Assembly: GCF_965641715.1 (NCBI RefSeq)
Contig: NZ_OZ282453.1
DNA from: Escherichia coli
Lineage (GTDB): Bacteria > Pseudomonadota > Gammaproteobacteria > Enterobacterales > Enterobacteriaceae
Length of the DNA: 64,000 bases
Direction: 5' to 3' (one strand)
Shown here: piece after piece, positions 19,852-21,210 of the stretch
Numbering within the stretch: position 1 is the first letter of the stretch
Layout of the letters: each line of letters opens with the position of its first letter
The notes under the pieces: generated by a model
What the model saw: the letters and a program-made list of their open reading frames with translations, nothing else
What the model was told of the DNA's origin: nothing
Databases searched by the model: none
Translations under genes and position numbers: made by a program

Positions 19852-19861
19852 GTATAGATCC
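19852..19861. repeat. target-site duplication GTATAGATCC, left copy
   Basis: Identical 10-mer directly abuts both IS186 ends. Confidence 0.7.
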
Positions 19862-21200
19862 CATAAGCGCTAACTTAAGGGTTGAACCATCTGAAGAATG
19901 CGACGCCTCGGTGCCTCGTTAAGACGATGCCTCGCGTTCTTCAATTGCGTTTTGTAGGCTGTCAGGGATACTGTCCCACGAATGGCCACCTGTAAGCTCC
20001 AGATGACCATTTTTGTTATTCTCCACAACGAGTTAGTTCTTCTTTTCGGATCCGGCACTTCTGGGGGGGAAATCCAGCGATGGCTGGATTATGTCGTCAA
20101 TTAAAAATGCGGCGAGTAGATTAGCAAATATCCACGCTTTCGCGAGTTCAGGTTCCTTTGCACGCAAAGCATCCAGGTGCAGCAAACTTTTGAGCCGCTT
20201 AAAAGCCAGTTCAATTTGCCATCGCAGACGGTAACAATCAGCCACTTGCTCTGCTGAATATTCATCTTCCGGTAATGATGTTAGCAATAGCACATGGCCC
20301 GCTGCTTCCAGCGTTTCCGCCTGAACTACTCGTCCTTTTCGACGATTCTCGCTGAGCAGTCGGGTTTTACTGATTAATGCTTTTTCGGGAGGAAGTGATA
20401 CGGCAATGAGACGTGCCGGAAAGGGAGCTCCGGCTTTTTTATTACCTGAATTGCCTATCATTACAGTGGTTTCACCGTTCTTACCGCAATCCAGCCCGCG
20501 CAGAAAACCCATCATGTCAAAGCGCATTCCTTCTGCAGTTAACCAGCGCAATCCTCGCCAGTGAACCCGGACGATATAATCAGCTTCTCCAAAAGCAAGT
20601 GAGCGGATACATTCGGGACGCGAACCGAATCCCCGGTCAGCAATGCGTATCTCGTCTGCCGTTTGCGCAAATCGGTCCAGCCGTTCAGCGTCTCTGCTGT
20701 CGGTTAGCTCAAAATCAGTGAACTGACAGGTATGAGGATCATATCCCATATGTAGTCGCCATTCAGCGCTGCCGCCCCCGGGCGCACTGATTGCTGTTCC
20801 ATCGACAAGACGCAATCTCTTTCCGCTTGTACAACCCGTAACTGCGGCGCGTACAGCAAGTGTTTGTGCGGCAAGTATGCCAAACCAGTCGGCGGCATTC
20901 CGCAGCCGCTTCAGGAGAGCCACGTCAGATAATGTTGCAACGTCATGGAGCTGAGCCCATGCAGTGACTTCACGTAATGACATCCCCCCGGGGCCGTAAG
21001 CCAGCCCCAGACGTAGCAGAGTTGCAGCATCACGAATTTCGCGGCGGCGGGTTAGAGCCCCGGCATTACGTGCCGAAGTATCCAGTTCTTCGGGCTTACC
21101 AATATGGGCCAGAATTGCTGACCAGTTATCGTGAGAGTAATTCATCGGCACGTTAAATCATATCAGGCGTAATACCACAACCCTTAAGTTAGCGCTTATG
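19862..21200 (-). mobile_element. IS186 (IS4 family) insertion sequence, 1339 bp
   Basis: Perfect 23-bp terminal inverted repeats CATAAGCGCTAACTTAAGGGTTG at 19862-19884 and 21178-21200; internal 372-aa IS4-family transposase; flanked by a 10-bp direct repeat. Confidence 0.9.
20033..21151 (-). CDS. IS186 transposase
   Basis: ORF track; MPMNYSHDNWSAILAHIGKPEELDTSARNAGALTRRREIRDAATLLRLGLAYGPGG... recognised as the IS186 transposase. Confidence 0.9.
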   Translation of the reverse strand: MPMNYSHDNWSAILAHIGKPEELDTSARNAGALTRRREIRDAATLLRLGLAYGPGGMSLREVTAWAQLHDVATLSDVALLKRLRNAADWFGILAAQTLAVRAAVTGCTSGKRLRLVDGTAISAPGGGSAEWRLHMGYDPHTCQFTDFELTDSRDAERLDRFAQTADEIRIADRGFGSRPECIRSLAFGEADYIVRVHWRGLRWLTAEGMRFDMMGFLRGLDCGKNGETTVMIGNSGNKKAGAPFPARLIAVSLPPEKALISKTRLLSENRRKGRVVQAETLEAAGHVLLLTSLPEDEYSAEQVADCYRLRWQIELAFKRLKSLLHLDALRAKEPELAKAWIFANLLAAFLIDDIIQPSLDFPPRSAGSEKKN

Positions 21201-21210
21201 GTATAGATCC
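21201..21210. repeat. target-site duplication GTATAGATCC, right copy
   Basis: See left copy; the reconstructed target tGGGtatagatCCCCgcc fits the G-run/N/C-run preference reported for IS186. Confidence 0.7.

Follow-up and report, generated by a model that had tools for sequence, protein, structure and literature searches.

A complete copy of the insertion sequence IS186 lies within an accessory sulfatase gene in the stretch of Escherichia coli DNA analysed here (64 kb, referred to below as the window). We regard it as almost certain that this arrangement was produced by transposition of IS186 into the sulfatase gene at a near-consensus target, with duplication of GTATAGATCC, and that it represents a null allele and a recent event restricted to one lineage; nothing was found that contradicts the insertion of IS186. 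In the proposed course of events, a complete IS186 copy would have transposed into the last gene of a PTS-IIC / PTS-IIB / sulfatase cluster, where its transposase would have picked a target reading GGGt-ATAGAT-CCCC on the plus strand, to be compared with the consensus GGGG-N6/7-CCCC. Staggered cuts would have fallen two bases within each run, and GTATAGATCC would have been duplicated when the gaps were repaired. By entering the gene at codons 86-89, the element would have detached the active-site motif near the N-terminus from the remainder of the enzyme and left a null allele, and all of this would have happened recently and in a single lineage. With a known element, a known mechanism and a dispensable accessory gene, it is a textbook insertion of an already known kind. 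The coordinates of the features are collected in Table 1.

Table 1. Features of the IS186 insertion, the interrupted cluster and other parts of the window.
Feature	Position in window	Strand	Basis
IS186 insertion sequence, complete, 1339 bp	19862..21200	-	identity to K-12 copies
Terminal inverted repeat, transposase-start end (element's own left)	21178..21200	-	23-bp match to other end
Terminal inverted repeat, transposase-stop end (element's own right)	19862..19884	+	23-bp match to other end
insL transposase gene, intact, 370 codons plus stop	20033..21145	-	InsL1 identity, NF033592, PF01609
Left copy of target-site duplication, GTATAGATCC	19852..19861		two copies only, 0.02 expected
Right copy of target-site duplication, GTATAGATCC	21201..21210		two copies only, 0.02 expected
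Insertion junction k-mers, TCAGGTGGGTATAGATCCCATAAGCGCTAACTT and GTTAGCGCTTATGGTATAGATCCCCGCC			
Sulfatase 5′ fragment, codons 1 to about 89, holds CMPAR	21201..21466	-	ORF 21158..21466, reconstruction, PF00884
Sulfatase 3′ fragment, codon 86 to stop	18636..19861	-	in-frame join after removing 19862..21210
PTS IIB, intact	21478..21798	-	Pfam PTS_IIB; reference-genome length, 1 aa difference
PTS IIC, intact	21820..23163	-	Pfam EIIC-GAT; reference-genome length, 0 aa differences
RybB small RNA	35034..35112	+	Rfam
naRNA4	17596..17676	-	Rfam
Two overlapping genes of the rimO-dgcI module	47373..47759, 47749..48078	+	RelE-family toxin PF06296, E = 7e-33; helix-turn-helix protein, weak MqsA antitoxin-family match

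The 1339-bp element carries its transposase gene on the minus strand and, in a nucleotide comparison, is identical at 1339/1339 positions to each of IS186A, IS186B and IS186C, the reference copies annotated as mobile elements in the record of E. coli K-12 MG1655. Its terminal inverted repeat, CATAAGCGCTAACTTAAGGGTTG, is found at exactly two sites in the window, one on each strand, and at no further site when 3 mismatches are allowed; matches by chance in shuffled sequence likewise amount to zero. The two ends match perfectly over exactly 23 bp (23/23), and their identity stops at base 24. The sole long ORF of the element encodes a protein of 370 aa that is identical to K-12 InsL1 and matches both the NCBIfam model of the IS4 family, NF033592 (133.3 bits; cut-off, 115), and Pfam PF01609 DDE_Tnp_1 (93.7 bits; cut-off, 23; E = 1.6e-26). 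A Y-x2-R-x3-E-x6-K motif around the catalytic glutamate is the signature of the IS4 family of DDE transposases, and this motif is present at residue 305 of the protein (YRLRWQIELAFKRLK). On these sequence comparisons the element is confirmed as a standard, complete IS186 (IS4 family, DDE transposase InsL). A first-pass annotation of the same DNA had described perfect 23-bp inverted repeats bounding 1339 bp, had assigned the transposase to the IS4 family and had proposed alignment to the IS186 reference as a check; the repeats, the family assignment and the IS186 identity are all borne out.

The three K-12 copies (insL1, insL2 and insL3) share the length of 1339 bp, the 23-bp inverted repeats and the 370-aa transposase with the copy described here but occupy other chromosomal sites than the sulfatase gene. 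The present copy is presumably able to transpose, as its ends are complete and its intact transposase is identical to that of copies active in K-12 (PMC5009759). Precise excision is expected to be very rare, as only 1 of 857 events was an excision in the work of Lee et al. (2016; PMC5009759). Under the NCBI annotation pipeline (PGAP), some identical copies carry the label 'IS4-like element IS421 family transposase' and others the label 'IS186B family transposase'; as far as these labels go, IS421 and IS186B differ in name only. Because CATAAGCGCTAACTTAAGGGTTG is confined to the two element ends in 64 kb, the window holds neither a second copy nor a solo end; a composite transposon is thereby ruled out, and the element counts as a simple insertion. 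Neither Rfam nor a tRNA scan of the window found RNA genes at or beside the element, and tRNA genes are absent from the whole 64 kb. Elsewhere in the window, Rfam matches correspond to the RybB small RNA and to naRNA4, a REP-derived nucleoid-associated RNA, both at their expected E. coli positions.

The direct repeat GTATAGATCC flanks the element and occurs at exactly these two sites in the window, where 0.02 would be expected. A repeat finder extends it to a 12-bp direct repeat, GGTATAGATCCC (19851-19862 and 21200-21211), because the element begins with C and ends with G, the same bases that adjoin the duplication in the target. Counting this C and G as part of the element, with the 23-bp repeats as its ends, gives a duplication of 10 bp; the sequence as such permits any length from 10 to 12 bp and, accordingly, an element of 1339, 1338 or 1337 bp. 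The first-pass annotation had given the duplication as 10 bp: the repeat itself is there, whereas its exact length holds only when these two bases are assigned to the element. Every IS186 copy inspected sits in a target of the G...C type, and the C/G ambiguity of the boundary is therefore built into all of them. For IS186B, ISfinder gives 1,338 bp and a direct repeat of 11 bp, as quoted in PMC12102499, and the K-12 record draws IS186 as 1345 bp; between the lengths of 1338, 1339 and 1345 bp it is the placement of the boundary that differs and not the sequence.

Deletion of 19862..21210, that is, of the element together with one copy of the repeat, yields a single sulfatase ORF of 493 codons on the minus strand. 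The rebuilt gene is 1482 nt long, as is the intact gene of O157:H7 (WP_001201596.1). It contains no stop and no frameshift, and differs from that gene by 4 nt and 1 aa and from its counterpart in the closest complete genome, CP062811, by 7 nt and 1 aa. It had been claimed from the letters of the window that the two sulfatase fragments are in frame once the element and one repeat copy are removed and that there is no secondary decay, and the reconstruction agrees on both counts. The empty site is preserved in O157:H7 as GGTGGGTATAGATCCCCGCC, where the bases duplicated here occur once, inside an intact gene annotated as 'sulfatase', and the host gene bears the same annotation in CP062811. The rebuilt protein matches PF00884 Sulfatase over residues 4-334 (100.2 bits; cut-off, 25) and has the C/S-x-P/A-x-R active-site motif as CMPAR at residues 49-53, upstream of the insertion point at codons 86-89. 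Because the insertion parts the CMPAR motif from the rest of the sulfatase domain, the allele should be null. It is most appropriately annotated as one IS186-interrupted pseudogene and not as two separate ORFs. The reading frame of the 5′ fragment enters the element and ends at a stop codon at 21158-21160, 12 bases ahead of the transposase ATG; the truncated sulfatase ORF and the transposase ORF share the same frame and direction (window 21143..21160). Given this shared frame and direction, read-through from the PTS operon could raise expression of the transposase.

The order of the cluster, PTS IIC, PTS IIB and sulfatase, placed between artJ and rlmC, is the same in O157:H7 and CP062811, and the three genes make up a putative operon. 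The sulfatase gene is the last of them and is followed by the convergently transcribed artJ. Since the interrupted gene comes last and both PTS genes before it are intact, the insertion should have no polar effect on other genes. Over the window, the closest complete genome is 98.2-99.4% identical, and 58/58 other genes that were compared with it are intact, which rules out a decayed, Shigella-like genome. With all of these genes intact, the window represents an ordinary, non-decaying E. coli chromosome.

IS186 is common in the species: of 5,426 complete E. coli genomes searched, 2,146 have a match that covers at least 80% of the element, and the median is 3 places per genome among those with any match at all. 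An 800-bp stretch around the rebuilt insertion site is, on the other hand, present in only 566 of the 5,426 genomes, which marks the sulfatase cluster as accessory, and it is uninterrupted in all 566 carriers. The best matches to this stretch are from O157:H7 (99.6%). The occupied junction, searched with a 400-bp query across the left side, was found in 0/5,426 complete E. coli genomes, and no match to it was found in JGI metagenome contigs. The insertion is apparently a recent, lineage-specific event, a reading to which three features point, namely the perfect duplication, the undamaged reading frames and a distribution private to this DNA, none of which is a clock. The identity of the element to the K-12 copies says little about its age because IS186 is nearly uniform across E. 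coli, and the age bracket is wide because identity to the window reaches only 98.2-99.4% even in the closest complete genome. The first-pass annotation had called the insertion recent, which accords with the absence of the junction from the complete genomes and the metagenome contigs. It had also called the event datable. This term is overstated, as a perfect duplication and an identical element provide no clock and the age can be approached only by bracketing presence and absence among relatives. The junction may serve as a strain-specific marker for typing and tracking this lineage.

The primary paper on the IS186 target site and on insertions at its hot spots is said to be that of SaiSree and colleagues from 2001. 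The sulfatase target can be read on the plus strand either as GGGt-ATAGAT-CCCC with a 6-bp core or as tGGG-TATAGAT-CCCC with a 7-bp core, the latter being the form given in the first-pass annotation. In a later study, 59 new IS186 insertions were reconstructed and the motif GGGG(N6/N7)CCCC was derived (Lee et al., 2016; PMC5009759). The core was 6 bp in 41/59 of these insertions and 7 bp in 16/59, and 7/59 sites deviated from the motif by 1-2 bases (PMC5009759). Measured against this motif, the sulfatase target has one mismatch under N6 and under N7 alike, a departure no greater than those published. After removal of the element, the window contains no perfect motif site; only 8 positions, about 1 in 8,000, come within a single mismatch of the motif with N6 or N7, and the element occupies one of these. 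The fit of the target is thus far beyond chance and yet that of a near-consensus site, not of a full match, so that the G-run/spacer/C-run preference to which it had been assigned in the first-pass annotation stands with the qualification of one mismatch, whichever spacer is chosen. The insertion is one more natural example of IS186 at a one-mismatch target and raises no new question on transposition or on sulfatase biology.

Hot spots with the sequence GGGG(N6/N7)CCCC are known in the lon promoter, fimA and menC, and in fimA and menC it is the coding sequence that is hit (PMC5009759). The same element and the same target logic are seen at the sulfatase site, which differs from these hot spots in being near-consensus, not perfect, and in showing no repeated use. 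It is not a hot spot, since 0/566 genomes carrying the site have an insertion there. The targets of the K-12 copies are perfect GGGG-N6-CCCC sequences (GGGGATCACTCCCC, GGGGAGTAATCCCC and GGGGATAATTCCCC), whereas the target here, written in the orientation of the element, has one mismatch (GGGGATCTATaCCC). The geometry is nevertheless shared, for the 10-bp duplication in K-12 starts two bases inside the G-run, as it does here in the 6-bp reading. We mention only as a long shot the broader proposal that IS186 accepts T in place of the innermost G (GGGt-N6-CCCC), that near-consensus sites in genes become effective targets where a region lacks a perfect motif, and that repeated disruptions in draft genomes could mark an adaptive loss of a PTS-linked cytoplasmic sulfatase.

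The choice between the two cores bears on the length of the duplication and of the element. If tGGG-TATAGAT-CCCC was the sequence recognised, the duplication would be the 11-bp GGTATAGATCC and the element proper would be 1338 bp, the length that ISfinder gives for IS186B. An 11-bp duplication is permitted by the 12-bp mechanical repeat and agrees with the 11-bp direct repeat listed for IS186B (PMC12102499), a 7-bp core has experimental precedent in the 16/59 insertions mentioned above (PMC5009759), and the target lies within one mismatch under N7 as well. However, the six other IS186 sites whose flanks were read, namely both ends of K-12 IS186A, IS186B and IS186C and of one E. albertii copy, together with the single visible end of two copies at contig ends (L011 and L012), all have the form GG|GG-N6-CC|CC with a 10-bp duplication, and they fit symmetric 23-bp repeats. 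The 6-bp core is also the majority form in the literature (41/59; PMC5009759). Neither of these two points is decisive, and the 7-bp geometry can be considered a serious although rather unlikely alternative. The 6-bp reading gives the same cut geometry here as at the six other sites, GG|GT ATAGAT CC|CC, and a 6-bp core with a 10-bp duplication is the preferred reading on the strength of these sequence parallels.

Other explanations concern the event itself. An old pseudogene, arising from a sulfatase already in decay or from an ancient insertion, is close to inconceivable: no supporting point was found for it, the rebuilt gene lacks any stop or frameshift and has one aa change relative to each of two intact alleles, the duplication is perfect, and none of the complete genomes searched has the junction. 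Hardly more credible is an assembly artefact in which a repeat-collapsed IS186 was misplaced inside the sulfatase gene. Although the multi-copy nature of IS186 (a median of 3 places per genome having it) and the absence of the junction from every other public genome searched would be compatible with such an error, a misassembly does not place an element with two complete ends in a target that fits the motif and flank it with an exact 10-bp duplication. A further question is whether the insertion was selected, because the lineage gained from losing the sulfatase or from a change in PTS cluster expression, or was a neutral hit on a dispensable gene. Parts of the literature describe selection of IS186 insertions at other loci, such as the lon promoter, and the cluster is accessory, its stretch being carried by only 566/5,426 genomes. 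However, with 0/566 carriers interrupted in the 800-bp stretch there is no sign of recurrent, parallel inactivation, and the site is among the very few near-consensus targets of the region, by which its location is explained without selection. Selection therefore appears improbable, and the insertion of IS186 into the sulfatase gene would most simply have been neutral.

Several other differences from the closest complete genome are seen in the window. About 1 kb between rimO and dgcI (window 47153..48148) is absent from that genome; the segment is a common accessory module carried by 1,128 of the 5,426 complete E. coli genomes, whose annotation gives it as a type II toxin-antitoxin system. Downstream of aqpZ, a GC-rich segment of about 275 bp (window 646..919) is inverted relative to the closest complete genome, with 92% identity and collinear flanks, and probably represents a small intergenic element that is repetitive or invertible. 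Between moeB and fsa, about 103 bp are missing at window 60459/60460, which probably reflects gain or loss of a repetitive extragenic element. In the closest complete genome, the pentapeptide-repeat gene between ybjQ and ybjP carries a pseudogene flag for lack of its C-terminus; window 12099..13337 on the minus strand is 97% identical to it at the protein level, with no stops or gaps.

A scan of GTDB species representatives detected an IS186 end at 8 loci. At least two of these represent E. coli K-12 DNA that contaminates unrelated assemblies, and the remainder mostly resemble E. coli DNA. Three short contigs, L009, L014 and L013, from Marinobacter, Kocuria and Bradyrhizobium assemblies, respectively, carry IS186 ends. 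The flanks of L009 and L014 are exactly those of K-12 IS186B (GGAGTAATC...) and IS186A (GGAGTGATCCCCGCC...), which points to contamination of public assemblies with laboratory E. coli K-12. L013 is probably K-12 contamination as well; its flank, GGATGTT, is too short to assign. A Verrucomicrobia MAG contig (L010; JAFEGT010000023.1) has a lone exact copy of 22 bases of the IS186 terminal repeat at 3913..3934, with no other IS186 sequence around it; about 0.03 matches of this type are estimated to be expected by chance in the GTDB collection, and the copy may be a remnant or the end of a related element. A Chloroflexi MAG contig (L015; JAAENC010000225.1) harbors an element of about 1.34 kb at 119..1459, of which one end is the 23-bp IS186 repeat and the other matches its first 18 bp. 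The flanks of this element read ...GGGG|element|CCCC... with no obvious duplication, and its transposase is diverged (372 aa) and keeps the motif YRLRWQ.E.AFKRLK. It looks, from these sequence features, like a distant relative of IS186 with unusually conserved ends.
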